DNA of 41,557 nucleotides from a virus, in IMG/VR virus record IMGVR_UViG_3300050498_000076, positions 1-41,557 of that record, one strand, 5' to 3'. Positions within the stretch are counted from its first letter, which is position 1, and each line of letters starts with the position of its first letter. The notes under the pieces were generated by a model. The model saw only the letters and a list, made by a program, of their open reading frames with translations. It was not told the DNA's origin and did no database searches. Below are positions 1,290-40,808 of this stretch, in pieces. The translations under genes and the position numbers were made by a program.

Positions 1290-1747
1290 ATGTGCATCTC
1301 TTTTCTAAGGAGTTGATAAACCGAATCCTTCGTCGGTGTCTGGTCTGTGAACCAGGCTATCAAAATCCAGCCTCGTTCCCTGGCGACGTTCTGCATCTCG
1401 AAGCGATCTTCCCTGTGCCCGGTGTGCCACACTCGACCCATCGGATCGAGTATGTAATAGATGGGTGCGTAAACGATGAAGTCTGCGACGTTCCCACCTC
1501 GGCGCCTGCGTCCACCGTTGAGTGGCACCTGGTAGTCCCATCCCCATCCGGTCATCTTCTCGATCTTCTCCAGTGCCAGGCTGGTCCAGTATTCATCCTT
1601 GCTGCCTGCCTTCTGGCCGCGGACAAAAAAGGGAGGCTGATCTGCCGGGTCCGTCAGCTTGGGCACTCGTGGCGATCTCTCTGGCCGCCTGACGTGCCCT
1701 GGCTTGGCGAATTCGAACAGCTTCTTCTTCTTCTTACTCAGCATCAT
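1286..1747 (-). CDS. Hypothetical protein with a Vsr/DUF559-like (PD-(D/E)xK) endonuclease-fold pattern (153 aa)
   Basis: Track ORF, ATGA-coupled. The pattern WDYQVPL..ADFIV..YILDPMGRVWH..REDRFEMQNVARERGWILIAWF matches the DUF559/Vsr layout (xQ..DF..hxhDxxGxxH..DxxR..L...GWxhhR) by eye. Confidence 0.5.
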   Translation of the reverse strand: MMLSKKKKKLFEFAKPGHVRRPERSPRVPKLTDPADQPPFFVRGQKAGSKDEYWTSLALEKIEKMTGWGWDYQVPLNGGRRRRGGNVADFIVYAPIYYILDPMGRVWHTGHREDRFEMQNVARERGWILIAWFTDQTPTKDSVYQLLRKEMHI

Positions 1748-5194: not shown

Positions 5195-5226
5195 TAAAAG
5201 ACCGGGATGCGCTCAGGCATCCCGGT
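5195..5226 (-). terminator. Rho-independent-type hairpin after the head genes
   Basis: Perfect 10-bp stem (accgggatgc / gcatcccggt, 5201..5226) with a 6-nt loop. It is followed on the minus strand by CTTTT. It sits between the 118-aa head gene and the adaptor-like gene. Confidence 0.5.
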
Positions 5227-5243
5227 TGTATTGTTGGCTTACT

Positions 5244-5651: not shown

Positions 5652-6623
5652 TTACGCAGATTGCAAGTTGTAAGCCCGACCGATGGCGCGTGGGTGGTTG
5701 ATATAAAGCCCGGCGCTTCCACGGACCACTGTGCGGTAATGGGTGCGGTTCTCCAGCAGGCCGACGTCGTCAGCGAATGGTTCTTCCTGGCACCAGCCAG
5801 CGACGTAGGGCTCCCCGAAGCGCACGACGAACAGGCTGCTCTTGGTGCTGCCGGTGAGTGCCGTTCCGTTGGCGAGTTCCGTGTCCGGCATGATCTGCGT
5901 GGTCTGATCGACCTTGCGCCCGATCTCCACGATTTTTGGGCCACCCTTGCCGTATGTTATGAACTGCCGACCGAGTTGGTCTGTCGTGGTGTCGAGCAGG
6001 TTGGATGATCGCATTGCGGATTGTGCTCGGCGATAGGTTTTCTTCCCCATGAATATGACCTTGTCTGCCGGGTTGCCATCGACCACGTCGAGCGTTTCGT
6101 CGATGACATCAAACAGCTTGTGCTGCCAGCTGGCGACTGCCGTGTCTGGTGAGATATCCAAGGCACCGGCGTCGATGGATTGCTCGGCGAGGAAATCGTT
6201 GATCAGTCGGTAGTGCAGTCCGACCAGACCGTCGACGTCCACTGCCGGTGATCCAAGGAAGAAGCTCTCGTTGAACTTGTACGCCACCCCTTTCATGATG
6301 GCTTCTTCCTGGGCGGCTCGAACGTCCACCAGGCTGTTGGCTTTGACGTACTCGTAGGGCACGTCGATCTTGGCTCCCATGAAGTAGAGTCTTTCCTCCT
6401 GGTCTTCGGGCTCTACCTTCAGATCAGTGAAGGCTGCGCCGACCTTGCGCCAGGGCACTTCCGGGATTTCGTTGAAGCGTTTGATCTTCTCTACGAGTTG
6501 ATCAGACGTTTTGAAGCTGAGGTCTTCCAGGATGGGGCTGGCTTCCCGCCAGGTCCTGATGACTGCAGCTGTGATGGGTGTCGCTGTGCGTTCGTAATCC
6601 GCCAGCGTGAATTCGTTTGCCAT
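5652..6623 (-). CDS. Major capsid protein (323 aa)
   Basis: Track ORF with RBS aaaGGAGcctgcacaATG. It follows a scaffold-like gene, and its size and composition are typical of HK97-fold capsid proteins. Family not verified by search. Confidence 0.72.
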   Translation of the reverse strand: MANEFTLADYERTATPITAAVIRTWREASPILEDLSFKTSDQLVEKIKRFNEIPEVPWRKVGAAFTDLKVEPEDQEERLYFMGAKIDVPYEYVKANSLVDVRAAQEEAIMKGVAYKFNESFFLGSPAVDVDGLVGLHYRLINDFLAEQSIDAGALDISPDTAVASWQHKLFDVIDETLDVVDGNPADKVIFMGKKTYRRAQSAMRSSNLLDTTTDQLGRQFITYGKGGPKIVEIGRKVDQTTQIMPDTELANGTALTGSTKSSLFVVRFGEPYVAGWCQEEPFADDVGLLENRTHYRTVVRGSAGLYINHPRAIGRAYNLQSA

Positions 6624-6673
6624 TGTGCAGGCTCCTTTGCATTGTTAGTTGCTCCGGTCCTGCTGCCTGCTAT

Positions 6674-7303
6674 TTACGTTTTGCGATGGGCGTCCCTGAA
6701 CATCTGGTGCCCAGACTTCGCAGGTGCTTGACCGGATGGTTGTCCGTCGCTGATTACTCTAGCGTCGGCGGTTTGGCTCTGCGAGGCTGTTCGTTGTCGC
6801 TTGGCTTCGATGGCTTTGAATACTGTGCGCTGGTAGGCGATGATGTTCCCTTGGGGATCGTCGAGTGCGGCTTTGACTTGTGCCCACTCTGGATCGTTCT
6901 GAGTGACCGTCACACCTTCCAGCTTGTATGTTTCCATCGTCCAGTCGTAGACGGGGTTGCCGCCGACAAACCCTGGTGTGGGTTCTTCTGGCGGCTCCTG
7001 CGTGTTCAGCTGATCGATCTCAGCTTCTACTTGTTCACGCAGCTTTACCTTCTGCTCTGCATTGAGTGGGGTCGACGTAAGACCTTCGATGCTCGTTGCC
7101 AGTGCAGTGACCCTGGCTTCGACTGCTTGGGCTCGCGACTTGGCAGATTGTTGGGCTCGGCGAAATCCTTCTTCGACGGCTGCTGCCATTTCTTCCTTAG
7201 TGACAAACTGCTGCTCAGTCTGCTGCTCCTGGGTCGCTGCGGCTGGCGCAGGCTTTGGCTCTGGAGTGGTTGATGCAGTCTGATTGGGCAAAGTGTTACC
7301 CAT
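6674..7303 (-). CDS. Scaffolding-like protein (209 aa)
   Basis: Track ORF with a GGAGG RBS. It is rich in Q, E and A, has a predicted coiled-coil centre, and lies immediately upstream of the capsid gene. Confidence 0.6.
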   Translation of the reverse strand: MGNTLPNQTASTTPEPKPAPAAATQEQQTEQQFVTKEEMAAAVEEGFRRAQQSAKSRAQAVEARVTALATSIEGLTSTPLNAEQKVKLREQVEAEIDQLNTQEPPEEPTPGFVGGNPVYDWTMETYKLEGVTVTQNDPEWAQVKAALDDPQGNIIAYQRTVFKAIEAKRQRTASQSQTADARVISDGQPSGQAPAKSGHQMFRDAHRKT

Positions 7304-7328
7304 GTGGAATGCCTCCTGTCCTGGAGAT

Positions 7329-7359
7329 AAAAAAAAGGGACCGCACTTGGGGCGATCCC
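7329..7359 (-). terminator. Leader terminator A2
   Basis: In minus sense there is an 8-10 bp stem (GGGAUCGC/GCGGUCCC, one G-U pair) followed by U8. It lies 25 nt upstream of the scaffold ATG. Confidence 0.6.
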
Positions 7360-7363
7360 TTGT

Positions 7364-7395
7364 AAAAATAACGGGACCGCGTCGTGGGTCCCGTT
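7364..7395 (-). terminator. Leader terminator A1
   Basis: In minus sense there is a 9-bp stem (AACGGGACC/GGUCCCGUU) with an 8-nt loop, followed by AUUUUUA. Its 5' arm overlaps the conserved 25-nt box. Confidence 0.6.
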
Positions 7396-7412
7396 TCTCT
7401 GTCTGCCGGACT
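7388..7412 (-). promoter_or_regulatory. Conserved 25-nt leader box, copy A (AGTCCGGCAGACAGAGAAACGGGAC in minus sense)
   Basis: 24 of 25 positions are identical to 32143..32167. Both copies lie just downstream of a TGcTATAAT element and upstream of terminator hairpins. Confidence 0.5.
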
Positions 7413-7429
7413 ATTTTAGTATGCCCGGC

Positions 7430-7438
7430 ATTATAGCA
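7430..7438 (-). promoter_or_regulatory. Extended -10 promoter element TGcTATAAT (late operon 2)
   Basis: The minus strand reads TGCTATAAT. The same 9-mer is found at 32195..32203. Confidence 0.5.
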
Positions 7439-9936: not shown

Positions 9937-12900
9937 TTATTGGATTGGTCCGGCTGCTGCCGGTTGTTGGTAAAGCATCGCCGGTACTACCTGTGCGTCG
10001 AGCCAGGTCTGGAAGTCACCGTATGGTTGTCCTTCCTTGAGCCACACCTGCTGCATGGCGAGGGTGGCGCCTTTGCCTAGCTTCTTGCCGGTCGCTGCGT
10101 AAAGCACCACGAACTGTTCGAGCCCATCCGGCCACGTGCTCGTGTCGACCTGCTTGAATACTTTTCCCTGTAGGATCGGCTTGAGCACTGGGTACTTCTT
10201 ATAATACTCCAGGTCCCTCCACTTCCAGTAAGCGTCCAGCTTGGGGAACTTCAACAGGTAGGCTGCTCGGTCGCTCTTGGCCAGGGAGTAGTATCCCTGC
10301 TCCAGCATATAGTATTCCGGGAACTTCTCCCGGCGCTGCGTGTAAAACGAATCGGTGATCGCCGTGACTGATGGATCGTAAAGGTTCAGGGCTGGCTGCT
10401 GTGCCTGGGGGACGTCGATGATCGGTGCGGTCTGTTCGGTGCGTGGGATCATGGTGCCGAGCATCTGTGCCCACTGGGTTAGCGTTTCCACTGGGATGGA
10501 TTCCATGTCGCGTGTCTCGGTGTCCAGGAAGGATCGTTGGAACTCATCGCCGAGTTGTGCGGTCGCTGCCTTGCGGTTGGTGTCGCCGAGTGCCATGTAT
10601 GCATCCCAAATGTTGCCGATCATAAACGATCGCAGCCGGTCCTGGGGCTCTTTGCCTTTCGCCAGGTATGCTTCGTACTCCGGGTGGTCATCGAAGAATT
10701 GATTGATCGCATCCTTGTCACCGTTGTCGGCTTTCTTCCAGGCTTCGTTCCATTCACCTTTCAAGCCTCGGTACTCCAGCTCTCCTGCCGGTAGCAGCTG
10801 GCTGCCGAAGAGTGATGGCAGGAATGCCTGGGTGCCTGCGATCGCTCCTTCATGTGTGGCTGCGTAGATGGTTCCGGCGAGTGGGGTCTTCATCGCCAGC
10901 TCCATCTTGACCCGTTGTCGGGCCTGTTCGAAGAGTTCACCCTGGCGCTCGATCATGGTGGTCTGTGCCTGGTCGCTGGTGATCAATCCTTCCGCTACCA
11001 TGTTGGCGAGTTGCCGGTCGATGTAGTAATTGCCGTACTCACCGAACTCTGGCAGGTTCAGCTTCTTCCTTGCCCATTGCTCTGGCTTCCCTGCGAGCCC
11101 GATCAGCTGACCGATCGGCTCTGCCCACGTCCCTTGGGTCACGGTTTCGATTGCTCGTGCCGTGTTGGTCAGTGGTAGGTTGGTGACCTTGTTGCGATCT
11201 CCCTTGGAGATGCCTGGCACTTCAATGCCCATCATATTGAGGGGTGTGCTCAGGTACCAGGCTGGTCCGAACATCGTCGCCATAAAGTCAAACGGGTTAC
11301 TGATCTCGGCTTCCCGGCGCTGCGCTGCTTCTGCCGAGGCTCGCTCCCATAGGGCTCCGCTCTGGCTGGCTGCAGCTGCGGCGACCTGGTCCTGTTGAGC
11401 AGATCCGTCCGCTGCCATCTCCTGCAGGATGCGCTCCGTTTCTATCACCTGCATGTTCTTGTCACGGCGCATGGCTTCAATGGGCCGCAGGAAGTTTGCC
11501 GGTGCGAAGAGCATCTGCATTGGATCAATGTATAAGGCGTCGCCCATCCAGTCTGGCATCCAGGGTGCGGCGATCTTGAACTTCCCTCGCAGGCGCTCCG
11601 AGATATCCCGCTCGTGCTTGTCCTGCATGTTCCTGATGCGTGCGTAGTTGGCATACCAGGTCGGCTTGTCGAGCCCTCGCATTGCCCAGGTCAGCAGGCT
11701 CCTGGTGTAATAGAACTCGTAAGGCGCCACCGATTCCAGGTGCCTATCAAACCCATACCGGCGCTGGTAGTTGAGCATGGCGAAGTCTCGCTGGCTCTCA
11801 CCCCATTTGATCGTTGAGTTCTTGACGGCTCCCATGTCGCTCTGGACCTGGCTCACGTAATCTCTCAGCATCTTCTGGCCTGCCGGGCTCACGTCCTTCA
11901 TGGCTCCGTCGAGTGGTCGCTCGGTCTGCAGCTTGTTGATCGCCACATCCTGCATGGCATCGAGCAAGGGTTGGACGTGGTTGCGGTAGCCTTCATCCAT
12001 CCATTCACTGTCTGCTCGGAAGCTGCTGGCGTTGTCCATCGTTCCGAGTGGCGCCTCGCCGACCAGCCTGACGGATGGTGGCATGGTGTCTCGTTGACCT
12101 TTGGGTGGGCGTTGTCCGGTTTCGATCCTGCGCTGCTTGTCTGCATATAGCTGGACGTCTGCAGCTGCCAGGTCTTCGCCGATCCCATAGCTTACGGAGA
12201 AGCCTGTTCGCTTCTTTCCACCGATCTCAAACTCAAGCTCTGCGACCTGGCGATCGATCGCGGCGAGTGCATCCTTGGCAGTTGCTTCGTCCGGGAACCA
12301 ATAGACAAACTCGTCGCCACCTTTACGGAAGGCTCTGCCTCCCACTCGCTCGATCTCAGTCTTGGCTACTCTGCCGATGCCGGTGATGATCTGATCACCA
12401 GCCTCGTGTCCGAAGGTGTTGTTGATCGCCGTCAGTCCATTCAGGTCGCTGGTGGCTTCGAGCCATCCGTCTGGCTTGGAGTCTATGCCGAGTGCGACGA
12501 CGGTTTCCAGTCCGCTGAGTGGGTCGGTCAGGGTCTTGTTGAGTAGCCAGTCACGTGCCTCGGTTCGCTCGGTGGCATCCAGCTTATCCCAAATCTCACG
12601 CAGCCTGGCTGCTGCAGTGTTCCTGCGATCGGCGCTCTGCTGCAGTGCTTCTCTCCCTTCGAATTGATAGAGCGTGCTCTGCTCGCCGGTCGCTTCCCTG
12701 ATCTGTTTCATGAGTTGCCGGAAGCCGGTGGGCGATGCGTCACCTTGCAGGCTCAGGCTGGTGCCGTCCGGTCGGCGGATGTCCACGTGTAGTTGGTGGT
12801 TGACGTCGTTCCCGATCGATCGCCGCAGCAGCCTGGTCTGTGCTTCGGTCAAGGGTCCGCCGATCTGCAGGGATGTCTCTTTGTAGTCAGCGGATAGTCG

Positions 12901-15900
12901 GATCGCCTTTGCTTCGTTGACGAACTTATCAATGGCTGGTGCGTAGACGTCGGTGGTTTCCAGGTCTGCCTGGTCGAACTGGTCCGGCCACAGCTCGGCG
13001 ATCTCTGCGTGGTATCGCATGTCGTCACTGGTCCGGTTGAAGTCCAGCATGCGCCCATCGGCAAGGATGAACCCGGCGTCTTCAAAGACCGGAGTTAATC
13101 CGAAGGCTTTGATCGCCTGGCTCACTGTTTGTGCATTGCCTTGGGTCATCGTGTGCGTGTCGTCGAGCACGTTCAGCTCGATGCTCCTGGGCATCCTGCC
13201 GGTGGTCTTGTATCTATCGAATGCCGGTTCGGTCAAGACGGCGATGGCGTCATATCCCTGTGCCTGGGCTGCCTTCTTCATCTTGGCGTCCAATGCGAAG
13301 CGATCATCGATTGAGTTGATCATGTCGGGCGGCTCGATGCCGAGTGTCTGCATAATCGTGATCTCGTCGCCGACCAGCGGGTTGCTCACGTTCACGTCGA
13401 ACGGTTCGTCGATCGGTCTTCCATAGAACTCCGCCTCTGCGTAGCTCGATGCATAAAAGGTGCCGCGTTCCTGGATGGCTTCGGCGCCTGGCAGTGCGGT
13501 CCGGTACCACTTCCTGTGGTTGATATGATCGATCATCTCCGGCTCTGCTCGTTGGAAGAGTGGTTGCCCTTCCATCACTGACTTCTTCATTGCCGGTGTG
13601 ACGTCGATGCTGTGGACCCGGTTGCCTTCTGAACTATAAAAGTTGACCAGCTTCTTGGTTTGTTCGGTGCCTCGCAGTCCAGGTGTTACGTAGGATGAGT
13701 CCAGGAAGCCACCATCTTCGACGAAGTCCGCTTGCTTCCGCAGCAGGTCGCTCATCACTTCGTCCGGCTCCATCTCTGCTGCCCTGCGTAAGACGTCCGG
13801 TGTCACTAATGCATGGCGTTCCGGTAGGTCGAGCAGCTCCGGGGTCCCCACTGTAGTCTCTCCGACTTGGGCTCCCCATTTCTTTCCGTACTTATCTGCC
13901 CAGGCCGGAAGCATCTTATCGTAAAAGCCCTTCATGCCTTCGCCACCGACTTCCAGGTCGGCGTCTCTCCATTCGTTGGATGTGTCTGGTGACTCTGTGA
14001 TCTTGGTTGCCAGGTCCTTGCCTACGATTTCTTCCACCTGCTCCGGTGTCAACCCTTGCCGGTCGAGCAGTGTCTGATCCTGCTTGATCGCTTCGATGTT
14101 GTATGTGCCGTCCGGCTTTCTCCAGGATGCGATGTAATCCACTTGCTTCGATAGATTGTATCGCTCTGCCTGCTGCTTGCCGGTGGTCCATGCCACTCGC
14201 TCGTATCCTTCTTCGGCTGCCATGCGCAGGATGCGCTTCATCACCAGCTCGTGCCAGGTCTTTTGGAAGGGTGCCTGGCTGATCGGTCCCGTTTCCGGCA
14301 GTGCTTCCATCTTAACTTTCTCAGCATCCCATTGCCGGTAGATTTCCTGAGCCCTTGCCTGGTCGTCGAGGATGTCCTGTGGGTACTGCATGGCTGCATT
14401 GAAGTCTTCGTATGATCCAGCGTTCTCTCGCTTGATCAGGAAGGCTTGCTTCTTATCGGTGCCCTCGTATAAGAGTGTGCCGTCCCTCGCTCTGATCCAC
14501 GTGGTCTTGGCTTCGTCGGTCTTGTTCCACTCCATGATGCGGTACGCGAGGTCCTTCTCTATGTTGAAATAATCCAGACCGAGTTGATCAACTTGCGCCT
14601 TCTGAGCCTGCCGAGCCCGGTCGATCTCCGGGTCCCGGTATCCCTTCTGCCTGCCTGCCTGGTGCCAGTCGCTCTGGATTTCCTCCACCATGAGCACCCG
14701 CTTCCCATCGGCATCGACGCGGTCCGTCAGCCTGGTGTGTGCCAGCACGTTGGGTTCTTCCCAGTGGCTGCTCTTGTATAAGACTTCGCCACCTGGACGC
14801 TCGTTGCGTGCCAGGGATTCCAGTGCCATCGTCCGGGCTTCTGTTTCGGTGTCACCTATTCCGAGCAGCTCTCCGTTGTAGTGCACTCTCCAGTCTTCTG
14901 GTCCATACTGCCTGGGTGCTGCCAGTGCGGGTAGCTCGGTCGGTGCTTTGATTGGTGGGGTCGGCATCGTGTATAAAATCTCCCGGTAGTTCTCTCCGCC
15001 TGGCAGGGTGTAGTTCTGGTACTTTGTAGCACCGCCTGTGCGGTTTCTCGTTGCCTCCTCGACGTGGAAGTTCCAGGTCGTTCCGTAGATTCTGCTCATG
15101 TCATTGGCGTAGCGCCGGGCTCTTTCCGGCATCGATCCTAGTCCGTATACCTTCCCATCCAGGTCTGTGAAGATTTGCCGCATGGGATCGTCTGGATCGG
15201 TGTCGTGTGTGAAGCCCTGTTCTTCCAGGGCTTGCTTATATAGCTGCCACCCACTGTCGGTTTCGAGTTTCTCCCAGGTCCGCTCGGCGATCTCCTGCAT
15301 GTCGATATCGGTGCTGCCCTTGCCCTTCTTTACTTCTTTGATATCGATCCGGTGGGTGTTCAGGACGTCCATCACTTCGGCTTTGGTGATCTTGCCGGTC
15401 CTGGTCTTGAGTAGATCGTCGAGCCCACTCCACTTCATCTCATCGGCTCTGATGCCTGCCTTCTGTAGCACTCCCTTCAGCTGGTCGATGGTCATCACTT
15501 CCTGGCGCCAGGCTGTGATGGTCTGCTCGGCTTTGGTGTACCAGATGTTGCCGATGCCGACTTGCTCCAGCATCTCCGGGGATGGTGGGGTTCCCTGGCG
15601 CAGCTCTGCCAGGTGCATCTCTGTTCGTGCTGCGATCTCGCTGGTCACGTCGATCGGCTTCTTATAGGAAGCTCGTGGGTCTTCGGCGCCGAGCATTCTA
15701 TCAAAGGCTGCCTTGACTTCTGGTGCGATCTTGACGTCGATGGCGCTGCCGGTGATCACCTTATAGATGCCGAGCATCCAGTCCCGCATGGCTTCGAAGG
15801 CTTTGCGCAGCGCCGGTGTGGGTGCCTTGCCTTCTGTGATGTAGCGTTCGAACGCACGTGCGTACTTCTCCTCGGCTGCTCGGTGCCAGACTCCGTCTCT

Positions 15901-18900
15901 GACTCCTGCCCATTGTTCAATCACCTGCAGGTCCGCACGCACCTGCTCGTTCCCCGTTCGTGCGACCACGTCTGTCATCACTCGCCGATAAATGTGGGCG
16001 TTCTCGTGGATCACGGTGCTGACGTCTGCTCGCTCGAACGCCAGGATGGTTGCCTTGATCCCGTCTGGTCCAAACTGGACGGCTCCCTTTGGTGCTGCTC
16101 CCATGTCCTGGAATTGGAACTCATCGATCGCTCGCTGCATACTAGGGATCGCCTTCGATGGTTCGTTGCTCTCGAATACTTTCTTGGCGATCTGTGCGAT
16201 CTTGTTGATGCCGCTCGGTGTTGCCAGGGCTCGGTCACTCACCAGGCTTTCGCCGTTGGCATCCCGGATATCAAACGTGATCATGTCGGATGGGTGGTCC
16301 TTCAGGATTTGCCTGATTACCTTCAGCTGTGCGGCTGTAGGGACCGTGTTGACCAGGTCGATGTTGGTTTCGTCTGGCGATACCCACCAGTGCACCGATC
16401 CTGTTTCGTTGGCGAACTCGTCCCCTCGATAGGCGCCTTCTCCGGGTCCCATTACTTCGGCGATCACGCCATGTTCTTCGAGTGCGATCAGCTTGCCTTC
16501 CGGTGTCAGCCAGAGTGCCGTCAGCGGACTATTTGGATCGTACTCGGTTGCTCCGAAGGTTTCGATTGCTCGCTTCGTCCAGTCGGTGCGCTTCGTCGGC
16601 TTATAAGATGCCCTGGCTTCTTCCAGCCAGGTCTGGTAGTAAGCGTCCGGGTCCCGCTGGAAGAGTAGGTCGATGTTCTGCCTGGCGACGGCTTCTGCCA
16701 TCTTCGGGTCCAGCTTGTAAACTGCATCGATGATCTGGCGCCTGGCGCCGAGGGTGCTCTCTGCCTGCAGTGCGTGACCCACGTGCTTGGCTCCCTGGCG
16801 GACCAGGGCTTGTGCGTAGAAGCTGGTTTCGTCTGACGTCAGGGATCGGTTGATGGGTTGTATCTGGAAGAGTGGTTGCCCTTCCATCACTGCCTGCCGC
16901 ATCTCCGGGGTCACGTCCAGGCTGTGGACCGTTCCCGCCTCTTGTGTTAGTTGCACCGGCTCGACCGTCCCATTGAACCACTCGGCCTTCTTGGCGGCTT
17001 CTCTCCTGGATGTGTAGGTCTGGACTTCCCCTTCCCAATCCACATAGCTCCCGTCGCTCCGTCGCACTCGATAGGCTTCCACTGTTTTGGTCAGCTGCGT
17101 GCCGGAGACTTGGGCTCCCCATTTCTTCGCGTACTTATTGACCCAGGATGGCAGCATCTGATCATAGAAACCCTTCATGCCTTCGCCGCCGACCTTCAGG
17201 TTCTCTCCTTCCCATCGGTGGGTCGCTGCTTGGGAATGATCTGCTGCGACGATCTTCTCCGCCAGGTCTTTGCCGATCGTGTCGGCGAGTTGCTCAGGTG
17301 TAAGCCCTTCCCGGTTCAGCAGGGTTTGTCTGCCCTTGACCGCGTCGATGTTATATGTTCCGTCCGGGTTCATACTTGAATCGATGTGGTCGACTTGCTT
17401 CGCCAGGTTGTATCGATCTGCTTGCTGCTCGCCGGTGGTCCATGCCACCCGGTCGTATCCCTCATCGGCTGCCTTGCGTAGGATGCGCTTCATCACCATC
17501 TCGTGCCAGGTCTTTTGGAAGGGTGCTGGTTCTACTCCGCTGGTGCCCTTCTGCAGTTCATCTAGTCGTGCCTGGGCGACCTGCTCCGCTTGCTCGGATG
17601 CTTGCCTTGCTGCATTGTAGCGAGCCTCCTCATCGGCATCCAGTTCATATCTCCAGGCGAGTTGGCGTCCCTGCTCATCTCGATACTTCTTCTCGAACTC
17701 ACCCATCAAATCCATGTAGGAGTTGTTCTCCGGCAGTTCTTCCCATCCGTTGTTTGCCTGGTCCTGCAGGAAGTTCAGCTCTGCCTGCTCGTCCACGGAT
17801 AGCTCTCGCTTGTATCCCTTCTGCCGACCTGCCTGGTGCCAGTCGCTTTGGATTTCTTCCACCATGAGCACGCGTTTCCCATCGGCATCGACGCGATCCG
17901 TCAGCCTGGTGTGTGCCAGCACGTTGGGTTCATCCCAGTGGCTGGATTGATACTTGGCTGGTGGGTTTGCCCTGTAGTGTTCGAGTGCTGATGCGTGTGC
18001 ATCCATCGGCGTGGGACCGGCGCCGACTACCTGGTCCCCATCCCAGTATTGATAGACCTGCCTGCCGTTGAGCATGGTCTGCTTCATTGTCGTGGTCGCT
18101 GGCAGTGTGTCTGGTCGTTTGCCTGGCATCGTGAAGAGCACTTCCTGGTAGTTGGTGTGGTCGCCTGGCAGGGTGTAGCTGTGGTATTTGGTGGGCGAAT
18201 CACTCTCTCGCCTGCTCTGCGTTTGGTACCGATACTCCCGCTCCAGGGTCATCTCCATCTTGACAGCTGTCCGCTGTATGTCCCCTGGTGGCATCTCGTC
18301 GCTGGTGATGATGTCGCCTTCTGCCTTCGCATCGTGCCATCCGAACTGCAGGCTGCCTTCGTCGTCGACGAACGCATCCAGTTCATACCCTTTCCGACTC
18401 ATGCGTGCCGCCTGGGTTCTCCATCCATGCTGCTCGTTCAGGTTGTCGAATGCCGCATCTATAACCACGTCCGGGTCCGGCTCGTTTCCTCCGCCTTTGA
18501 CGATCTCAGTCATCTCCATGCGGTTGGCGTCGAGCACTTCCTGCACTTCGGCTTTGGTGATCTTGCCGGTGCGCTCTGCCAGGAAGTCATTGAGCCCGGT
18601 CCACTGCATCTCCTCGGCCTTGATGCCTGCCTTCTGCAGCATGCCGCGCAGCTGGTCGACGGTCATTGTCTCTTGTCTGATCGCCGTGATCGCTTGCTCA
18701 GATTTGGTGTACCACACAGGTGCCTCTCCTGTTTGTTTCAGCAGCCCTTCATCGCTGGCTGCTTTGCGGATGTCTTCATAATACCTGGCGTAGAAGTTTG
18801 CCTGGTCTTCGCCGGTGACGTTGGAGTACCAGGTTGCGACGGCATCGCTGATGGTCATGTATGCTTCTGCCTGCTCGACCGGCAGTCCCATCTCCTGGAT

Positions 18901-21900
18901 GATCTTCTCCTTGAGCAGCTGCTTGGTCATGGCTGCGTTGCCTGCTGTGTCCGCCTGCTCTTGTGCGATCTCAGCTCGAGCCTGGGCTTCGGCGATCGTG
19001 CGGTTGCGTTCGTTGGCTTCCACTCGGGCCGCAGCTTCATCGGCGATGTTGCTGATGTGCTCGTTCCACGTGGTGCCATCATGCCTGGTTGCGTTCCCGA
19101 TCTCCGGGGGAAGCTCTCCCATCGTTTCATACATAGTCGCCAGGTCCCCTCGGTCAACCGCGGAGTTCAGTCTCTGCTCCCAGGCTGCCAGCTCGAACGC
19201 ACCGCCGTCGCCGGTGGTAGGATCTGCGGCTTCTTCTGCAGCGACCTTCTCGTAGTGGATGGCTGCGTCCCGCTCGATCGCCGGGTCGTAGTTGTGTCCC
19301 ATCGGGTAGATGTTCTCTCCGCTCCGGGCTCGCTGGATCATGGCTGTCAGCTGTGCCACTCCGCCGAGGTCGGTTGGGTTGTCGAGGTCGATCGGGTATC
19401 CGTCGTCGGCCAGCATCCTTGCCATCTCATCGATGCCGATCCCCTGCCTGGTAAATGCTCCGGGCATCCCACGTGGGTTGGGATCGCCGGTCAAGTCACG
19501 GGCCAGCGCCAGGGAGATTCCGCCGTGATTGCGGACGGCTCTGAGTAGCTTGGTGTTGTTGTCGATCGTGCGGTCGTTGCGTGATCGCCTGCCGGTGCCG
19601 GTGTCGACGGCTCGCTCTGCAGCTGCGGTTGCTTCGATGTCCTTCAGTTCGTTTCGCCTGGTCAGGATGCTGCTGATCCGCTCTGGTGTCAGGCGTGGGT
19701 CATCGAGCCCGGTCAAGTCCGGGATGCCGCCGTATGCTTCCTTCTTCAGGGCTCCTATCAAAGCGAACCGATCCTGCAGCACGTTGCGATCGTAGGGCAA
19801 TCCTACCCGGTTGAACTGCTCGGCTGCATCCCATACTGTGCTGACTCTGGTGGCTCGCTCTGCCTGCTCCTGTGCCTGGCGCTGCTCCGCTTCGGCGATC
19901 AGCTGGTTGCGTTCTTCTTCCAGGGTGGGCACGTCCCTGCGTTGTTCTTCGAGCCTGGTCAAGTTCTCAGCCTGGACGTTCTCCCTTGTGGGCCGGGTGG
20001 TCTGCTGGTACTCGCCTCGCAGCTGGTCGATCATCCCTTCGGCTGATGGTGCGGGTCCTGGTCCTGGCTGCGTGGGTCCACTGGGTAGTGCTGCTGTGCC
20101 GGTGGGTCCGGTGCCGCGTCGAACGATTCGCTCCAGTCGGCGGATGCCTTCCATGTTGATCCGTTCCAGCTCTGCGATCTGTGCGACCTTCTCTTGTCCA
20201 TAGTATTTGTACTTGGCTTGGGCTCTCTGGTCTTTGGTCATCCCCTCGAGAGACTTTCGGAACTTCCGTTCCCTGCTCACGATCTCATCGCTGAATCGGT
20301 TGGCGTCCTTCCACCATTTGCGTGCTGCTTCACCGGCTGCCGGTCCATGCATGTCGGTGTAGATGGTGGTCAGGCTCTCGCCGATGCGAGCGTCGTTGGC
20401 TTTCTTTGCTTCGAAGGCTTGGGAGAACCTGGTGTCGATCTCCTTCTGCAGCTCTGCCCAGGCTTTGTTGCTCTCGATGCTTCCTGCTCGATCGCCGGTG
20501 TACGTCTCGAAGAACGATCGGCGCTGCTCCCGCATGAAGCTGTAGGCGTCGCTCATCACCCGGTCGTTCTCTGCGATCGCAGCCAGCAGTCCACGTGCGG
20601 ACGGGTCGTTGCTCTTTCCCCAGGCTTCGAAGATGCCGAGGTAATTGGCGGCTGTGCGTGCGTTGATCCGCCTGAACTCCTCGCTGCTGATTCGGTAGGC
20701 TTCCTCGATGGCTCTGTTCTTAAGTGCCGTGTCCGGGACGTCTGCCAGGTCCTGGAAGATTTCGCCGAACCTATAGTAATGATCGAGCCAGGCGTCGGTG
20801 TATTTGCTGTTGACCTGCATGACCGTGTCGAGTGCGGCTGGTGCTCCTTCGAGTTCGACCTTGTTGGTCACGTTCTCTGCCATCGCTCGCAGGTCCCTGG
20901 CGGTCTGCATGTCGTTGTAATCCCTGGCGTGTTGGGCTGCCATCTTGAACGCACCACGGACCTGGTCCGGGGTCTGTGCCTTGGTCAGCGCATGATCTAA
21001 CGCGTCCAGCACACCGACCTTCTCCAGGAGTGTGGCTGCCTGGCTGGATGGGATGCCTACCTTCTGTGCGGCTTCGTTGATCAGCGTGCGGCTCATCATT
21101 CCCTGCTGCCTGCCAAAGATGAAGCGATCGATCTCCGGCTTGTTCATTCCGGCTTCTATCAAAGAGTAGATGGTGTTGGGGTTGATCCCTGCCTGCTCCA
21201 CCTGAGTGCGCAGCTGTGGGCTCATCTCCTGGAAGCCTACGCCTCGGCGCCAGGTCTTCGCCCATATATCTTTCATGGCGATCATGGTGCCGTGTTTGCT
21301 TTCGGTGCTCTCGAACCAGCTGCTGACTTTATTGAACGGCATTGCCTTGCCGATGTTGCTGACGATCCTTTGGGCTGCTCCGAGTGGTCCCCGTTGGTCC
21401 CCGCGTATAGCCATATCGATCGCCGATGTCTGGACACTCCCTCGTGTGGGTGCCATGTCCACTGCTCCGCCGATTCCCACTCCTTCTGATAAACGTGCAG
21501 GCTCCACTCCGAAGCGGGTCAGCCAGCTGTCGATCTGGTGTGGTGTCATGTACCCATAGATTCCGGTGGCGGCTCTGTGGACCATGTTGCTCAGTCCGTT
21601 CTGCAGTGCGTAGCCTGGGCTGCCGCCAAGCAGTAACACTGACTGTGCGCTCTTGAGTAGATGGGTCGTGCGGAAGAATGCTTTGCTCTCTGGCGTGTCC
21701 TTCCCTAAGCCTAACCGCTCGGCGGTCCACTCATCGAAGTGTGATCCGAGTGCATCCATCAGGCTGGCTTTCCATTGGTCCGGGTGCCAGTGCAGTGCTC
21801 CGGTGCCGGTGAACGCACCGACGATGTCTTGCAAGTGATCGGCTGTAAATCGACCAGCTTCGATCTCTCGCAGCAGATCCGCTCCGTCTTCACCGGCTGC

Positions 21901-25163: not shown

Positions 25164-25651
25164 TGTGCGGCTCCTGACTTGAGTGGTGGTATGCGATTCG
25201 ATTCGAGCAGCTGCCTGGTCACTTCTTCTCGCCGAGCCATCAGCTGTGTCATCTCTGTCTGGCTCGCCTGCAGGTTGACGATGATCGTGTTCATCTGGCC
25301 TAGCTGCTCCTTCAGTGTTTCGTTGATCGGCACTCGCTTTGCCAGGTCCCGCATGGTGTCCAGCTGCGTGGTCGCCGACGTGAGTTGTGCGTCCCGCTCC
25401 TTCAGTCGATCCTGCATCTGCTCCACGTGCCGCTGGCATTCGACGTTGGCTCTCTGGAGTGCGACGTTCTCCTGGTAGAGTTCATCGTTCCGGTCTTGCA
25501 GCTTCTTCAGTGAGTCTGTGAACTTAGTGATCGCATCGGCATCGGCTGCTCCGCTCTGTGACTTGGCCAGCCTGCGTGCGTTCAGCCAGCTCATGGCGCC
25601 GCCGATAAATGTGAGCACTCCAATGATTAGGGTTACGGTCGATGGGTCCAT
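25160..25651 (-). CDS. N-terminal TM plus coiled-coil protein (163 aa; internal virion or envelope-acting candidate)
   Basis: Track ORF with a hydrophobic N-terminus (VTLIIGVLTFIGGAMSWL) followed by heptad-like Q/E/L-rich sequence. Confidence 0.68.
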   Translation of the reverse strand: MDPSTVTLIIGVLTFIGGAMSWLNARRLAKSQSGAADADAITKFTDSLKKLQDRNDELYQENVALQRANVECQRHVEQMQDRLKERDAQLTSATTQLDTMRDLAKRVPINETLKEQLGQMNTIIVNLQASQTEMTQLMARREEVTRQLLESNRIPPLKSGAAQ

Positions 25652-26217
25652 TTGCTTATGTTCTCCGTAAAGACCGCGAGCAGCTCCGGGTTGTACTTGT
25701 CGTGGTCCTTGATCAACTGCTCCATTGCTCGCTCGTGGGTGAAGGTCGGGTGGTAGCTGCGGACCTCGGTCAGCGCATCGTATGTGTCGACGATGTGGAC
25801 GATCATGGCGGCGTGTGAGATGTTGCTCTCTCGTGCGTGGTCCGGGTATCCGCTGCCGTTGTAGTTCTCGTGGTGGTGCCGGATGATGTCCAGGATCATG
25901 GCGTCGAGCCTGGCTTCGCTTGCGAGGGTGTATCCAAGCATCGCATGCTGTCTCATAACTACCAGCTCGATCGGCGCCAGCTTGCCGGTCTTGTTAAGGA
26001 TGGCTTCCGGGATCGATGCCTTGCCGAGGTCATGCAGTGCGGCGCCCACGTCCAGCATCTCCAGCTGGTTGCTGTTCATCCCGATCGTGCGGCCAAACTC
26101 GACGGCGATCTGTCGGACCCGATCTCCGTGTTCGTGGCTGTAGGTTTCCCTCTGCCTGCTCAGTTGTCCCATCATGCGGATGATCAGCTCGTGATCGACC
26201 TTGACCTTGCTGTTCAT
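25633..26217 (-). CDS. Stand-alone HD-GYP domain phosphodiesterase (194 aa)
   Basis: All hallmark motifs are present: SHEHGDRV, LHDLGK, PIELVVMRQHAMLGY, HHHENYNGSGYP and IVDTYDALTEVRSY. Its ATG overlaps the portal stop (ATGA). Confidence 0.9.
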   Translation of the reverse strand: MNSKVKVDHELIIRMMGQLSRQRETYSHEHGDRVRQIAVEFGRTIGMNSNQLEMLDVGAALHDLGKASIPEAILNKTGKLAPIELVVMRQHAMLGYTLASEARLDAMILDIIRHHHENYNGSGYPDHARESNISHAAMIVHIVDTYDALTEVRSYHPTFTHERAMEQLIKDHDKYNPELLAVFTENISKWTHRP

Positions 26218-29891: not shown

Positions 29892-31316
29892 TTATTGCAA
29901 CTGACTGATGTCGATGCCTGGGAAGCCTTGGGCTGCTCGTTCGAGCGTGACCGCTATGTACTTCGGGTCCAGCTCCACCCCTCGGCATCGCCTGCCGGTA
30001 TTCTCTGCGGCTATCAACGTGGCGCCTGCTCCCAGGAAGCTGTCGATCACGATCTCACCGATCGTCGATGAGTTCTCGATCGCTCGCCTTGCCAGGCCGG
30101 GTGGCTTCTGTGTTGGGTGCAGGTATTCCTTGGCGCTGTCGCGTCTGATCTCCCAGGCTGATGAGTTGCTGTTGTCGGAGATCAGCATGCTCTCCCCTTC
30201 CTTCATCCTAATCAAGCGGACCTTGCCTGACTTCGGTGCGTTGCGCTTCAGGTACATCTTGTGCTCCCCGTAGGCGAGCAGCACTCCTGCGGCGATGCTC
30301 ACTGCGCTGTGATCGTCGGGTGTCACTCGTATCCGCCAGCATGTGCTCTGCTTCCGGTCGCCGTAAAACGCAGCGGTGCTGCCCTGCTTCTGTGCATAGA
30401 AGAACGGCTCGTGCTGCCAGCGGTAGTCGCTGTGTCCCATCACGAAGGTTTCCTTGACCCACACCAGGTATTGCTTTTCTTCGAGCCCGACCGCATCCAT
30501 CGCCCATTCAAAGTCTCGGCGTGTGCTCGATGCGTGGAAGATATAAAAGCCTGCGGTGCTCAACGTATGATCCATCAGCTGCTTGAAGGCTGGCTTGAGC
30601 AGCTGGTTGACCAGCTCGTCCTGCTTCAGTTCGTCATTGAGCACTGACTCTCCGCTGCCTCGGCTCTCGTAGTCCACTCCGTAGGGCGGGTCAATGAACA
30701 CCATGCTTGCGACTTCTCCACCCATCAGCTGCTTGAAGGTCTTCGGCTTGGTTGAGTCTGCGCAGATGATTCGATGCTTGCCGATCTGCCACATCTGCCC
30801 TGGCTCCGTTCCCCATTTCATGCGCAGCTCTGCCGCCTTGTCGATCAGCTGTTGGCCTGCATCGTCATCGCCGGTGGTGCCGTAGTCGATCCCGCTGTCC
30901 CTGGCGAGGTCTGACAGGAACTTGAGCACGTCGGTGTTGCTCGTGTTGACCTGGTCGAGCAAGGCTTCCATGTTCATGCGGTCGGTCGTTGCCAGTGCGG
31001 CCATCGCATCGATCGAGAGCAGTGCCTGGGCTTCTTCTTCCGGGCTCAGGTCCACCTGGATGTATGGCACATCGGCGTCGCCGTTCTTCGCGGCTTCTTC
31101 GATGCGCTCGTGCCCATCGATCACGTGTCCGGTTCGGATGTTGTCGATCACCACGTCAAACCAACCAATCGACTGCAGTGATCCCTGCACTGCAGTCTTT
31201 TGGCGGGCCGGATGCTTGCGCCAGTTGTTAGGGTGTGGGTTGAACTGTGATGCTGGCTTGGTGCCGTATCCGACTATCCGGTTCTGCCATAGTGTGTTGG
31301 GCTCTGCGGTGCTCAC
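29892..31316 (-). CDS. ParB-like nuclease domain fused to an N4/N6 DNA methyltransferase (474 aa, GTG start)
   Basis: N-terminal ParB-type pattern (NPHPNNWRKH...VIDGHERIEEA). DPPY motif (VFIDPPYGVDY) and a C-terminal FxGxG motif (DSFLGAGAT), in the beta-class motif order. Confidence 0.85.
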   Translation of the reverse strand: MSTAEPNTLWQNRIVGYGTKPASQFNPHPNNWRKHPARQKTAVQGSLQSIGWFDVVIDNIRTGHVIDGHERIEEAAKNGDADVPYIQVDLSPEEEAQALLSIDAMAALATTDRMNMEALLDQVNTSNTDVLKFLSDLARDSGIDYGTTGDDDAGQQLIDKAAELRMKWGTEPGQMWQIGKHRIICADSTKPKTFKQLMGGEVASMVFIDPPYGVDYESRGSGESVLNDELKQDELVNQLLKPAFKQLMDHTLSTAGFYIFHASSTRRDFEWAMDAVGLEEKQYLVWVKETFVMGHSDYRWQHEPFFYAQKQGSTAAFYGDRKQSTCWRIRVTPDDHSAVSIAAGVLLAYGEHKMYLKRNAPKSGKVRLIRMKEGESMLISDNSNSSAWEIRRDSAKEYLHPTQKPPGLARRAIENSSTIGEIVIDSFLGAGATLIAAENTGRRCRGVELDPKYIAVTLERAAQGFPGIDISQLQ

Positions 31317-31693
31317 TCCGGTAAGGCTCCGGTGTATCCGAGCGTGCGCAGGTAGCCATCGACGTCGCGGACCCAGTTCATGATCTGGTTGTCATCCGGG
31401 TCCGGTGTTGGTATTGGGTTGTGCAATGATGGGAGTGCGTATCGCCTGTTGCCGATGCCCAGGCACACGTACTCTTGCGTGAGTCCGCCTGGGTTGTCTG
31501 TGATCCTTCCCCATTCCTGGATGCCTGTGCTCCCCTTGACCTTGATGATCTGATAAACGTGGAAGCCCTCGCCGTTGCTCATCCATCGCAGGATGTTCTT
31601 GGTGCTCTGCGTGTTGGTCTGTGCCCTGACGTTGAGCCCTTCCTTATTAACGACCAGGTAGTTTGCCGGGATGATCCAGCTGTCTCCGTCCAT
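31313..31693 (-). CDS. SH3b-like / peptidoglycan-binding-like protein without a recognisable catalytic domain (126 aa)
   Basis: LNVRAQTNTQSTKNILRWMSNGEGFHVYQ...EWGRI resembles a bacterial SH3 domain. The C-terminal VRDVDGYLRTLGYTG resembles the start of a PG_binding_1 repeat. It lies next to the holin-like gene. Confidence 0.6.
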   Translation of the reverse strand: MDGDSWIIPANYLVVNKEGLNVRAQTNTQSTKNILRWMSNGEGFHVYQIIKVKGSTGIQEWGRITDNPGGLTQEYVCLGIGNRRYALPSLHNPIPTPDPDDNQIMNWVRDVDGYLRTLGYTGALPE

Positions 31694-31694
31694 C

Positions 31695-32042
31695 TCAGCC
31701 TGCTTTCGGTGGCGCCAGCCAGTAGGCTTTGGTGCGCTCCACCAGCTTGTGTGTCTGGCGGCTGATGGTGATCTGGAGTATGTATTGGAAGATCAGGGTT
31801 GCAAACTTAACGATTTCGAGCAGTGCCTTGTCTGCCGATGGGACGTCGACCCTTGGGTAAAACTGCAGCAGCACTGCGACCACGATCAGGGCGATCAGGT
31901 TGAGTGCTGCGGATGCTTTGCCTGCGTTGCCTTCGTTGATCACGCCTGCCCATTTGAAGACGTCTATCAAGAGTGCGATCGCTGCGGGTATTCCTACGCT
32001 GGCTGCCAGCACGGCCAGTACGATCTCGGTTGTGATGTGCAT
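31695..32042 (-). CDS. Holin-like membrane protein (115 aa)
   Basis: Two to three hydrophobic helices and a charged C-terminus. It is the first gene after the late leader cassette. Confidence 0.55.
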   Translation of the reverse strand: MHITTEIVLAVLAASVGIPAAIALLIDVFKWAGVINEGNAGKASAALNLIALIVVAVLLQFYPRVDVPSADKALLEIVKFATLIFQYILQITISRQTHKLVERTKAYWLAPPKAG

Positions 32043-32068
32043 GGGTTGCTCCTGTTTCTTCCGGCTGC

Positions 32069-32106
32069 CAAAACAAAAACGGGAACCCTTTTGCGGGGCT
32101 CCCGTT
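32069..32106 (-). terminator. Leader terminator B2
   Basis: In minus sense there is an 11-bp stem (AACGGGAGCCC/GGGUUCCCGUU, one G-U) with a 7-nt loop, followed by UUUUGUUUU. It lies 27 nt upstream of the holin ATG. Confidence 0.65.
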
Positions 32107-32113
32107 GAGAGAT

Positions 32114-32140
32114 AAAAAAATCGAGACGCCTCGCTATCGA
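32114..32140 (-). terminator. Weak hairpin plus U7 (leader element B1)
   Basis: In minus sense a short stem (CGAG GCGU CUCG) is followed by AUUUUUUUAUCUC. The TTTTTTTATCTC 12-mer is shared with cassette A. Confidence 0.3.
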
Positions 32141-32142
32141 GT

Positions 32143-32167
32143 GTCCCGTTTCTTTGTCTGCCGGACT
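32143..32167 (-). promoter_or_regulatory. Conserved 25-nt leader box, copy B (AGTCCGGCAGACAAAGAAACGGGAC in minus sense)
   Basis: 24 of 25 positions are identical to 7388..7412. Confidence 0.5.
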
Positions 32168-32181
32168 GTGGGGGTTGGGTC

Positions 32182-40724: not shown

Positions 40725-40757
40725 TGCCTGTGCTCCTTCGCTTGGATTGGTTCCCCT

Positions 40758-40791: not shown

Positions 40792-40808
40792 GTAATGTGT
40801 CTGTTAGG

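Follow-up and report, generated by a model that had tools for sequence, protein, structure and literature searches.

The virus record IMGVR_UViG_3300050498_000076 of IMG/VR, analysed here over its entire length of 41,557 nucleotides (the window), is a phage-like genome of 41.6 kb and 57% GC in which every gene lies on the minus strand. Two operons encoding virion proteins are each preceded by a short leader, here termed cassette A and cassette B, in which an extended -10 promoter element is followed by a conserved 25-nt box and two terminators. The operon behind cassette A runs from a 209-amino-acid (aa) scaffold-like open reading frame (ORF) through the major head protein (6623..5652, minus strand; phrog_212, E 7e-28) to tail-like genes. 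The operon behind cassette B starts with a 115-aa hydrophobic protein, followed by a ParB-methyltransferase, the large terminase, a 572-aa probable portal, an HD-GYP protein and a 4695-aa ORF. Each cassette is proposed here, with moderate confidence, to serve as the 5' leader of a late operon and to attenuate transcription through RNA helices that exclude one another. In this scheme, a factor would stabilise a small antiterminator hairpin, P1, and the decision would be relayed to a second terminator in the window's subclade. Judged from its sequence, the cassette appears to encode a leader RNA of the terminator/antiterminator type, new and well supported, that belongs to a phage clade. Cassette A (7438..7304, minus strand) and the start of its operon comprise the following features.

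7438..7430, minus strand: extended -10 promoter element TGCTATAAT, without a -35 match
7429..7413, minus strand: 17-nt spacer between the extended -10 and the box
7412..7388, minus strand: box AGTCCGGCAGACAGAGAAACGGGAC, the putative P1 antiterminator hairpin, in which GUCC (7411..7408) pairs with GGAC (7391..7388)
7395..7370, minus strand: hairpin 1 of 9 bp, AACGGGACC/GGTCCCGTT, then ATTTTT
7364..7395, minus strand: terminator 1, AACGGGACC-cacgacgc-GGUCCCGUU, then AUUUUU, with the 5' arm common to P1
7361..7335, minus strand: hairpin 2 of 10 bp, AAGGGATCGC/GCGGTCCCTT, with a T8 run at 7336..7329 and then ATCTCC at 7328..7323
7323..7361, minus strand: terminator 2, AAGGGAUCGC-cccaagu-GCGGUCCCUU, then U8 and AUCUCC, with the 5' arm GGGAUCGC at 7359..7352
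7317..7312 and 7303..7301, minus strand: Shine-Dalgarno sequence AGGAGG and ATG, the start of the 209-aa scaffold-like gene
7303..6674, minus strand: 209-aa scaffold-like ORF, the first gene after cassette A

Cassette B (32203..32072, minus strand) repeats this plan.

32203..32195, minus strand: extended -10 promoter element TGCTATAAT, within the 3' end of a 65-aa ORF (32379..32182)
32143..32167, minus strand: box AGUCCGGCAGACAAAGAAACGGGAC, the putative P1 antiterminator hairpin, in which GUCC (32166..32163) pairs with GGAC (32146..32143); 24 of 25 positions are identical to cassette A
32109..32148, minus strand: terminator 1, CGGGAC-ACUCGAUAGCGAGGC-GUCUCG, then A, U7 and AUCUC; a branched stem whose base is common to P1
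32072..32106, minus strand: terminator 2, AACGGGAGCCCC-gcaaaa-GGGUUCCCGUU, then UUUGUUUU, from the terminator scan and folding
32053..32049 and 32042..32040, minus strand: Shine-Dalgarno sequence AGGAG and ATG of the 115-aa hydrophobic protein, which heads the packaging, portal and giant-protein operon

All the parts of cassette A that an earlier note on this DNA had listed (promoter element, spacer, box, hairpins, ribosome-binding site and ATG) are present where it had placed them, and hairpins 1 and 2 rank at the top of the minus-strand terminator calls in a scan. The note had treated the box and hairpin 1 as separate consecutive elements. Both exist, but they overlap, since the 3' third of the box, its last eight bases AACGGGAC, doubles as the 5' arm of hairpin 1. 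The P1 loop of cassette A is GGCAGACAGAGAAACG and contains a conserved (G/A)CAG motif (GCAG at 7406..7403). The description of the downstream genes as a scaffold/capsid operon holds for the capsid; the 209-aa ORF has no family match and is called scaffold-like solely from its position and acidic composition. With up to three mismatches, the box occurs in the window at exactly two places (7388..7412 and, with one mismatch, 32143..32167) against 0.00 expected from shuffles, so that its claimed near-exact repetition in cassette B is borne out. For the motif TGNTATAAT, three occurrences stand against an expectation of 0.29, two of them being the cassettes. A further segment which the note had described as repeated, TTTTTTTATCTC, is likewise found in both, 3' of hairpin 2 in cassette A and 3' of hairpin 1 in cassette B (32120..32109). 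The idea of one control element common to both late operons thus stands.

As no exact match to the box turned up in IMG/VR, relatives were gathered from metagenomes and IMG/VR via capsid and terminase (TerL) profiles, and further loci came from a degenerate-pattern scan of the viral collection. A large uncultured clade of ~40-kb phages with 54-73% capsid identity was recovered. Among GenBank phages there is no close DNA relative (no megablast match, capsid matches below 30% identity), and no cultured phage appears related by these two comparisons. Upstream of the scaffold gene, the relatives usually carry an extended -10 (TGnTATAAT or GTGTATAAT), a variable leader, the sequence G(U/C/A)CCGACAGA, a short linker, a GC-rich hairpin with CGGG at its start and CCCG at its end, a U-tract and a ribosome-binding site. 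A second copy lies upstream of their packaging operon, where a small membrane-like protein occupies the position of the window's 115-aa protein, and homologues of the 209-aa scaffold-like ORF lie in the equivalent position at 18 loci. A covariance model built from 21 copies retrieved 45 copies (43 distinct) at E<=1e-4 among the loci gathered, plus three in bacterial metagenome-assembled genome (MAG) contigs. Cassettes were thereby found on ~37 contigs, with two or three copies in ten genomes and exactly two in the window. The arrangement of a promoter followed immediately by one or more terminators in the leader of virion-gene operons, as proposed in the earlier note, is therefore real and kept across the clade. 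The two tandem terminators it described are present in the window but specific to a subclade formed by the window and two relatives (L098 and L099); most relatives possess a single terminator, to which terminator 1 of cassette A is homologous.

P1 is supported by covariation. The alignment used was derived from the covariance model, which was fitted to the terminator and not to P1. Nevertheless, across 172 cells in the 43 distinct cassettes, box positions 1-4 are paired with the terminator 5' arm in 99.4%, with both sides changed in 29 cells, and none of 500 shuffles reached the observed values. When the partner is slid by one to three columns, pairing falls to 29-72%. The pair between columns 5 and 35 appears as UA (18), CG (16), AU (7), GC (1) and UG (1), and is never unpaired. 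The stem variants include GUCC..GGAC, GCCC..GGGC, GACC..GGUC, AACC..GGUU, UGCC..GGCA, GACU..AGUC and AUCU..AGAU, with wobble forms such as GCCU..GGGC, and different compensated stems may be held by a single genome (GUCC/GGAC and GCCC/GGGC in L157/L114 and in L116a/b). The terminator hairpin with its U-tract is itself 94.5% paired across the family, with 94 cells changed on both sides. In 7 of the 43 sequences, however, the 5'-arm base of the covarying pair is unpaired with its terminator partner, so that P1 pairs more faithfully at this position than the terminator does. Nor is the signal a by-product of a box that copies the terminator 3' arm, because in cassette B and six relatives (L045, L049, L150, L004, L018 and L041) the box differs from the 3' arm and still pairs with the 5' arm.

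The covariation shows the 25-nt box to be one complete small hairpin, P1. The 3' strand of P1 doubles as the base of terminator 1, which marks the box as an antiterminator overlapping this terminator. Such a hairpin would explain why exactly these 25 nt are conserved. Two stretches of it are invariant, CCG-ACAG (5' side) and CGGG (3' side). The linker between them is often a mini-hairpin with compensatory stems (CUG/CAG, CGA/UCG, CGG/CCG, CGC/GCG, CAGGG/CCCUG), which is replaced by an A-rich loop in the window's group. Overall, P1 measures 21-32 nt, with loops of 10-24 nt, and the loops of the optional inner hairpin (3-6 nt) follow no fixed pattern. In the subclade, conservation extends over the whole element. 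The 25-mer of cassette B is identical to that of L098 at 25 of 25 positions, where it lies upstream of the scaffold gene, and differs by one change in L099, while the respective capsids are only 70-73% identical (70% for L098).

Folding of the nascent transcript is in line with this arrangement. As long as the 3' arm of terminator 1 has not emerged, the minimum-free-energy structure is P1 (-3.9 to -4.7 kcal/mol); thereafter terminator 1 wins with -14 to -17.5 kcal/mol. The free minimum-free-energy fold of cassette B through terminator 1 has -17.2 kcal/mol. Across the family, the medians are -5.3 kcal/mol for the P1 state and -22.0 kcal/mol for the terminator. The exact register of P1 is found in the prefix fold of 24 of the 43 sequences, as opposed to 0.5% for random 4-mers, and most of the others are shifted by a single base. 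The cassettes combine two general marks of attenuators, namely a leader terminator between the promoter and the first gene and a covarying alternative helix that uses one terminator arm. An alternative long-range pairing of the box with the U-tract and the AUCUC/GUUUGUC tail, seen in the minimum-free-energy folds of the window and some relatives, was rejected. The tail is not conserved across the family and cannot explain the conservation of ACAG; this pairing looks like an ordinary A-tract/U-tract extension of the stem.

The position of the cassettes ties them to the late operons. All of them end at most 54 nt 5' of the first ORF and on its coding strand. The product of this ORF is the scaffold-like protein, with the capsid gene following, or else a small hydrophobic protein at the start of the terminase/portal operon. 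Of 46 cassettes, 35 have a perfect TATAAT in the 160 nt upstream (2.6% of background windows) and 23 have TGnTATAAT upstream (1.3% of background). In two relatives (L012 and L020), TGCTATAAT is found immediately before the scaffold gene without box or terminator, which supports its role as the operon promoter. A similar extended -10-like sequence, GGTGTATAAT, occurs without box or terminator ahead of an early helix-turn-helix gene of the window (41162..41153). We conclude that TATAAT probably represents the operon promoter and that the box would function with the terminator, not with the promoter. The -10 and the box are separated by anything between 9 and 105 nt, and hairpins may be inserted between them. 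Such freedom would be expected of an RNA element and not of a promoter DNA element, and it speaks against a sigma-dependent pause or a DNA site close to the promoter. Since no space remains for a second promoter between the terminator and the ATG, read-through is needed for expression of scaffold and capsid, in agreement with the override logic of the earlier note.

In several genomes, including both cassettes of a Chloroflexi prophage, a palindromic mini-element, CCCTCCCCCAAAT(T)GGAGAGCGCAATTT(A)GGGGAGGG or a near variant, sits between promoter and box. It was observed in L201 (~6570..6640, minus strand), L175 (~1412..1480, minus strand), L111, L011/L037, L038 and L056, in the last of these after the terminator. 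This is a repetitive extragenic palindrome (REP)- or miniature inverted-repeat transposable element (MITE)-like sequence, or an additional leader hairpin.

In the proposed switch, transcription would begin at the extended -10 promoter (TGnTATAAT, without a -35), and the 25-nt box would be the first structured part of the RNA. As P1 alone is weak (about -4 kcal/mol) compared to the terminator (-13 to -17 kcal/mol in the window), the folding energies predict termination as the default state, with the late genes off and a short RNA of ~60-110 nt. If P1 were held, the base of the terminator stem beside the U-tract could not form and RNA polymerase would read through. This would require a stabiliser of P1, most likely a phage-encoded RNA-binding protein made earlier in infection, which would recognise the invariant CCG-ACAG...CGGG core, equal in every cassette of a genome, and would turn on both late operons. 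A protein is preferred since the element is confined to the clade, its loop is conserved within subclades and early expression would provide the timing.

For the second terminator, found only in the window, L098 and L099, a relay is proposed. Terminators 1 and 2 of cassette A have the same octamer, GCGGUCCC, as their 3' arm, and the copy in terminator 1 (7380..7373) can pair over 8 bp with the 5' arm of terminator 2, GGGAUCGC, to form a second antiterminator, AT2. The energy of AT2 in cassette A is -15.0 kcal/mol, compared to -16.1 kcal/mol for the arms of terminator 2, and is equalled by 1 of 500 shuffles. The duplex energies in cassette A, L098 and L099 (-15.0, -13.7 and -14.0 kcal/mol) all lie near those of the terminator 2 arms and are better than those of shuffled arms. 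When P1 is enforced, AT2 is part of the minimum-free-energy fold of both cassettes just before the 3' arm of terminator 2 emerges. Capture of the terminator 1 5' arm by P1 would thus free the 3' arm to pair with the 5' arm of terminator 2, and thereby block this terminator as well. The leader would form a chain of five segments, in which pairings 1:2 and 3:4 lead to read-through and pairings 2:3 and 4:5 to double termination.

Several observations weigh against this switch and its relay. The stem of P1 has just 4-5 bp, and the terminator could displace it quickly enough to leave P1 with no more than a marginal effect. The covariation is evidence of selection for P1 pairing and does not tell which state is the default; transcription start, termination efficiency and temporal regulation are all inferred. 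Moreover, the DNA pattern that yielded 17 of the cassettes required CCGACAG, CGGGNC and GNCCCG, although the informative positions, namely the two bases 5' of CCG and the N's, could vary freely. Some relatives (L012/L039/L053, L017 and L020) are without any cassette, as is the record IMGVR_UViG_3300015370_000024, so that the control must be dispensable. Concerning the relay, AT2 of cassette B is weak (-11.4 vs. -20.4 kcal/mol for terminator 2), and once terminator 2 is complete it is thermodynamically favoured in both cassettes even with P1 enforced. The relay would therefore have to act kinetically, and read-through of terminator 2 may need something more, e.g., a processive component. Finally, scans of ~45 window ORFs against Pfam and/or PHROGs revealed no Q, N, NusG-like, CAT, ANTAR or other RNA-binding or antiterminator domain.

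Within the same scans, no Q-family protein was detected among the early and middle ORFs or the ORFs flanking both cassettes (Pfam, PHROGs; a few ORFs below 45 aa unscanned), and the remark of the earlier note that no Q, N or put homologue is evident agrees with the Pfam, PHROGs and Rfam results. No CAT_RBD/PRD match was obtained in the scanned ORFs, and no sequence resembling a ribonucleic antiterminator (RAT) was seen by inspection. Likewise, the scanned ORFs contain no ANTAR domain, and the P1 loops are unlike the tandem hexanucleotide-loop hairpins of ANTAR systems. The genes 5' of cassette B are almost without recognisable homologues in the Pfam and PHROGs scans. Directly upstream of this cassette, a 76-aa protein (32606..32376, minus strand) is syntenic with genes in L045 (4735..4962), L049 (3462..3704), L047 (1903..2148) and L052 (2146..2364). 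The members of this family, of 72-81 aa, share the motif G-x-G-x-V-T-I-x-F-x-x-G-x-P-R-x-I, and their position resembles that of Q relative to lambda pR'. Only one of five members matches a Pfam family, marginally (DUF2292, E 0.044); no close homologues and seven remote ones without annotation were found, and a single-sequence AlphaFold model was unusable (pLDDT 52). The 76-aa protein is therefore a weak candidate for the factor.

The scans having identified no factor, it could be supposed that none acts in trans. P1 would then make the terminator constitutively leaky, at a fixed ratio of short to long RNA, and the cassette would tune expression, insulate the operon from upstream early read-through or sense polymerase speed or nucleoside triphosphates. 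This is judged unlikely. P1 does form first during transcription, and the cassette-free relatives would suit fine-tuning better than an essential switch. However, with P1 ~17 kcal/mol weaker than the terminator (median), little read-through would be expected ahead of scaffold and capsid, the products needed most abundantly. The (near-)identity of the 25-mer in cassettes A and B, L098 and L099 despite 70-73% capsid identity also exceeds what a bare helix needs.

That the protein scans yielded no candidate would equally suit an ON-type riboswitch, in which P1 is a small aptamer stabilised by a metabolite or nucleotide reporting the state of the infected cell, with no protein involved. The layout resembles that of pbuE, in that the terminator 5' arm also serves as the 3' strand of the helix that closes a conserved hairpin. 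The core (G-ACAG...CG) is invariant and unpaired while the stems vary by compensation, and the window encodes a GGDEF-like segment and an HD-GYP protein. This explanation is nonetheless considered quite unlikely. Without the optional mini-hairpin, the element is very small, a 4-bp stem with a loop of 13-17 nt; it was not found upstream of cellular genes, and GGDEF and HD-GYP are not co-distributed with the cassette. Rfam 15 gave no match at the gathering threshold over the whole window, and permissive E-values returned no riboswitch family for either cassette, only sub-threshold small RNA (sRNA), miRNA and other cis-regulatory families. The bolder version, in which P1 (an NNCCG-ACAG...CGGGNN core with or without the inner mini-hairpin) is the aptamer of a new, very small, phage-confined riboswitch class that times the virion genes without a phage regulatory protein and is relayed over two terminators in the window's subclade, is held to be improbable.

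The earlier note had favoured processive antitermination of the lambda pR'-qut-tR'/Q or put type, in which the box, as DNA or nascent RNA, loads a factor on RNA polymerase or remodels it so that downstream terminators are ignored. The placing of a promoter and immediate terminators ahead of late genes does match the pR'-tR' layout, and the two copies per genome recall putL and putR. Two successive terminators, as in the window's subclade, would be most simply overcome processively, and terminator 2 forms at equilibrium even with P1 enforced. The evidence on the box itself speaks against it: its distance from the -10 is not constant, and the conserved element both overlaps the terminator and covaries with the terminator 5' arm as a competing helix, which neither qut nor put does. 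Local antitermination is enough for the single terminator of most relatives, the scanned ORFs yielded no Q, N or NusG-like domain, and no Rfam family was matched. Processive antitermination as the function of the box therefore has a low probability.

That the cassettes are instead genes for small trans-acting RNAs with a single-stranded seed (CCGACAG), the downstream operons being transcribed independently, is very improbable: promoter, ~60-110 nt and strong terminator are the standard layout of an sRNA gene, the 5' segment is conserved while the hairpin varies, and a weak sub-threshold Rfam similarity to Hfq-binding sRNAs exists that is merely terminator-like, but every cassette is on the coding strand and no more than 54 nt upstream of the first late gene, leaving no space for a further promoter, the "seed" covaries with its own terminator arm, and the window contains no significant complementary target (12 matches vs. 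6.6 expected at up to three mismatches), none of them conserved. A trans-acting RNA complementary to the box, similar to P4 CI, was rejected from the same count, as no match was conserved or convincing.

The distribution of the cassette outside the clade fits a phage-specific factor. In cellular genomes, 80 pattern matches were obtained, and a score above 40 bits together with P1 and a promoter was found only in prophage copies. Outside the clade, the full P1 is present in 11 of the 80 matches, which is near chance, and three of these 11 are prophages of the clade itself; an excess of full-P1 matches is thus absent. Two cassettes (L201 and L175) lie ~19 kb apart inside the 248-kb Chloroflexi MAG contig JACRBI010000004.1 (80-112 kb), beside homologues of the giant protein, scaffold, capsid and tail genes, and a further copy (L230) lies in the 264-kb Chloroflexia contig CAWAMX010000017.1. 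L098 encodes an integrase (Phage_integrase). The clade is therefore likely to be at least partly temperate with Chloroflexota as hosts, a view drawn from the relatives and not from the window's own host.

Some relatives carry a third cassette ahead of other small genes (L116, 7945..8013, and L120, 5770..5829, both minus strand). The genes behind these encode a 136-aa protein resembling a 126-aa ORF of the window (31693..31313) and a 69-aa protein, indicating that the number of gated late units differs among genomes.

Further features of the window lie outside the cassettes. The 4695-aa ORF (9937..24024, minus strand) occupies one third of the genome and matches Pfam GGDEF at aa 3860-3949 (E 6e-10). 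Its 4835-aa homologue in L098 (1..4825) carries the precomputed annotation GGDEF plus ART-PolyVal, and the GGDEF segment is kept in only some relatives (L043, L230). A 194-aa protein within the packaging/portal operon (25633..26217, minus strand) matches HD_5/HD domains (E 3e-29) and contains the HD-GYP signature HHHENYNGSGYP; in L049, an HD-GYP homologue with HHEKWDGTGYP directly follows cassette B. From the GGDEF-like segment and the HD-GYP protein, the phage is predicted to encode synthase-like and phosphodiesterase-like cyclic-di-GMP modules. A link between cyclic-di-GMP and the cassette was rejected, since the domains do not co-occur with it in the relatives. For example, three relatives (L037, L036 and L044) have cassettes and no GGDEF segment in the covered region of the giant gene, and HD-GYP was found only in the window and one other contig.

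Among the early genes, a 207-aa ORF (33721..34344, minus strand) matches the Pfam ribosome modulation factor (RMF) at aa 71-111 with E 6e-8, exceeding the curated cut-off, and could contain a phage-encoded ribosome hibernation-type domain. At 37860..38020 (minus strand), a nominal 321-aa ORF contains an AT-rich stretch (TATTATTATTG...AATAATAATAATAAG) with one copy of the palindrome CAGGAATCCGGCAAACGGATTCCTGGAGC on either side, an arrangement which looks like a replication origin or iteron region. An early control region (40740..41170, minus strand) comprises the extended -10-like GGTGTATAAT mentioned above, which would drive a 102-aa HTH_Tnp_1-like protein (41117..40809), followed by a near-consensus promoter, TTGACA-17-TATAGT, at 40786..40758. 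The -35 of this promoter falls within the perfect palindrome ATTCTTGACAAcTTGTCAAGAAT, a likely operator, and the mechanically called ORF at 40840..41202 is in the wrong frame. Between the post-capsid gene and the next gene, a strong 11-bp hairpin (5200..5227; AACCGGGAUGC-cugagc-GCAUCCCGGUC on the minus strand, called on the plus strand by the scan) has a GGGA(U/C) arm motif in common with the cassette terminators.

Tailed phages that lack their own RNA polymerase are mainly known to time their late genes by activators or sigma factors, by processive antitermination of the Q, N or put type, or by proteins that bind RNA polymerase. In the uncultured clade described here, which has related prophages in Chloroflexota MAGs, both virion operons seem to be controlled by a local terminator/antiterminator RNA switch instead. 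No description of the P1/terminator element or of the clade turned up in full-text searches of the literature, and the element would add a cis-regulatory RNA family with unusually clean covariation. Its 25 nt offer a handle for fishing the regulator, whether protein or ligand, from a phage with early genes that lack recognisable homologues. The cassette signature also marks the starts of late operons in related metagenomic contigs, and a single antiterminator decision relayed over two terminators would be a compact and portable design for synthetic control.

Compared with known systems, the cassette appears to fit no RAT, ANTAR or Rfam riboswitch family. In Thermus phage P23-45, gp39 binds RNA polymerase and acts generally at U-tracts (PMC3351154). 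Extended -10 late promoters without a -35 and the suppression of intrinsic termination by a small phage product are points of similarity, whereas no gp39-like protein was detected in the window, where a specific RNA element is conserved instead. The trp-type attenuators, with their 1:2, 2:3 and 3:4 pairings, share the principle of a chain of segments that can pair with either neighbour; in the window's subclade, the chain would have five segments and control two terminators. Leader-peptide attenuation itself was rejected: the cassette leader has no leader peptide, ATG or Shine-Dalgarno sequence, so that, unlike in trp, the position of a ribosome cannot be the sensor.

With lambda pR'-qut-tR'/Q, the cassettes share a probably constitutive late promoter, one or more terminators immediately before the virion genes, a predicted short RNA in the off state and a regulator expected from the preceding early or middle operon. 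Q, however, uses a DNA site and a sigma-dependent promoter-proximal pause and renders the polymerase processively resistant, while the cassette is a terminator-excluding RNA helix with free spacing. As to processivity, the two terminators of the window resemble each other, and also the box, in sequence. Similarly, putL and putR of phage HK022 are cis-acting structured RNAs just after promoters, present in two copies per genome, supported by covariation and requiring no recognisable phage protein. In contrast to P1, which is too small and overlaps its terminator, put is a two-stem RNA of ~70 nt that lies upstream of and separate from the terminators and acts processively.

The closest parallels are found among local attenuators. 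In ON riboswitches such as the adenine sensor pbuE/ydhL, the closing helix of the sensor also competes with the 5' arm of the terminator in a kinetic, co-transcriptional decision, although the core of P1 is far smaller (~11 invariant nucleotides), has no Rfam match and is known from one phage clade. The RAT elements of BglG, SacY and LicT differ in that the cassette bears no resemblance to RAT sequences, no CAT/PRD protein occurs in the scanned ORFs and a protein partner is only inferred; the phage element, furthermore, stands ahead of virion-gene operons in two to three copies per genome. They agree with it in their central design: a weak leader hairpin, its stem broken by an asymmetric internal loop with conserved bases, shares its 3' strand with the 5' arm of a far stronger terminator, such that termination is the default and a stabilised hairpin means read-through. 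Overall, the element behaves like a classical local terminator/antiterminator attenuator, RAT-like or ON-riboswitch-like, and not like a device that modifies RNA polymerase.

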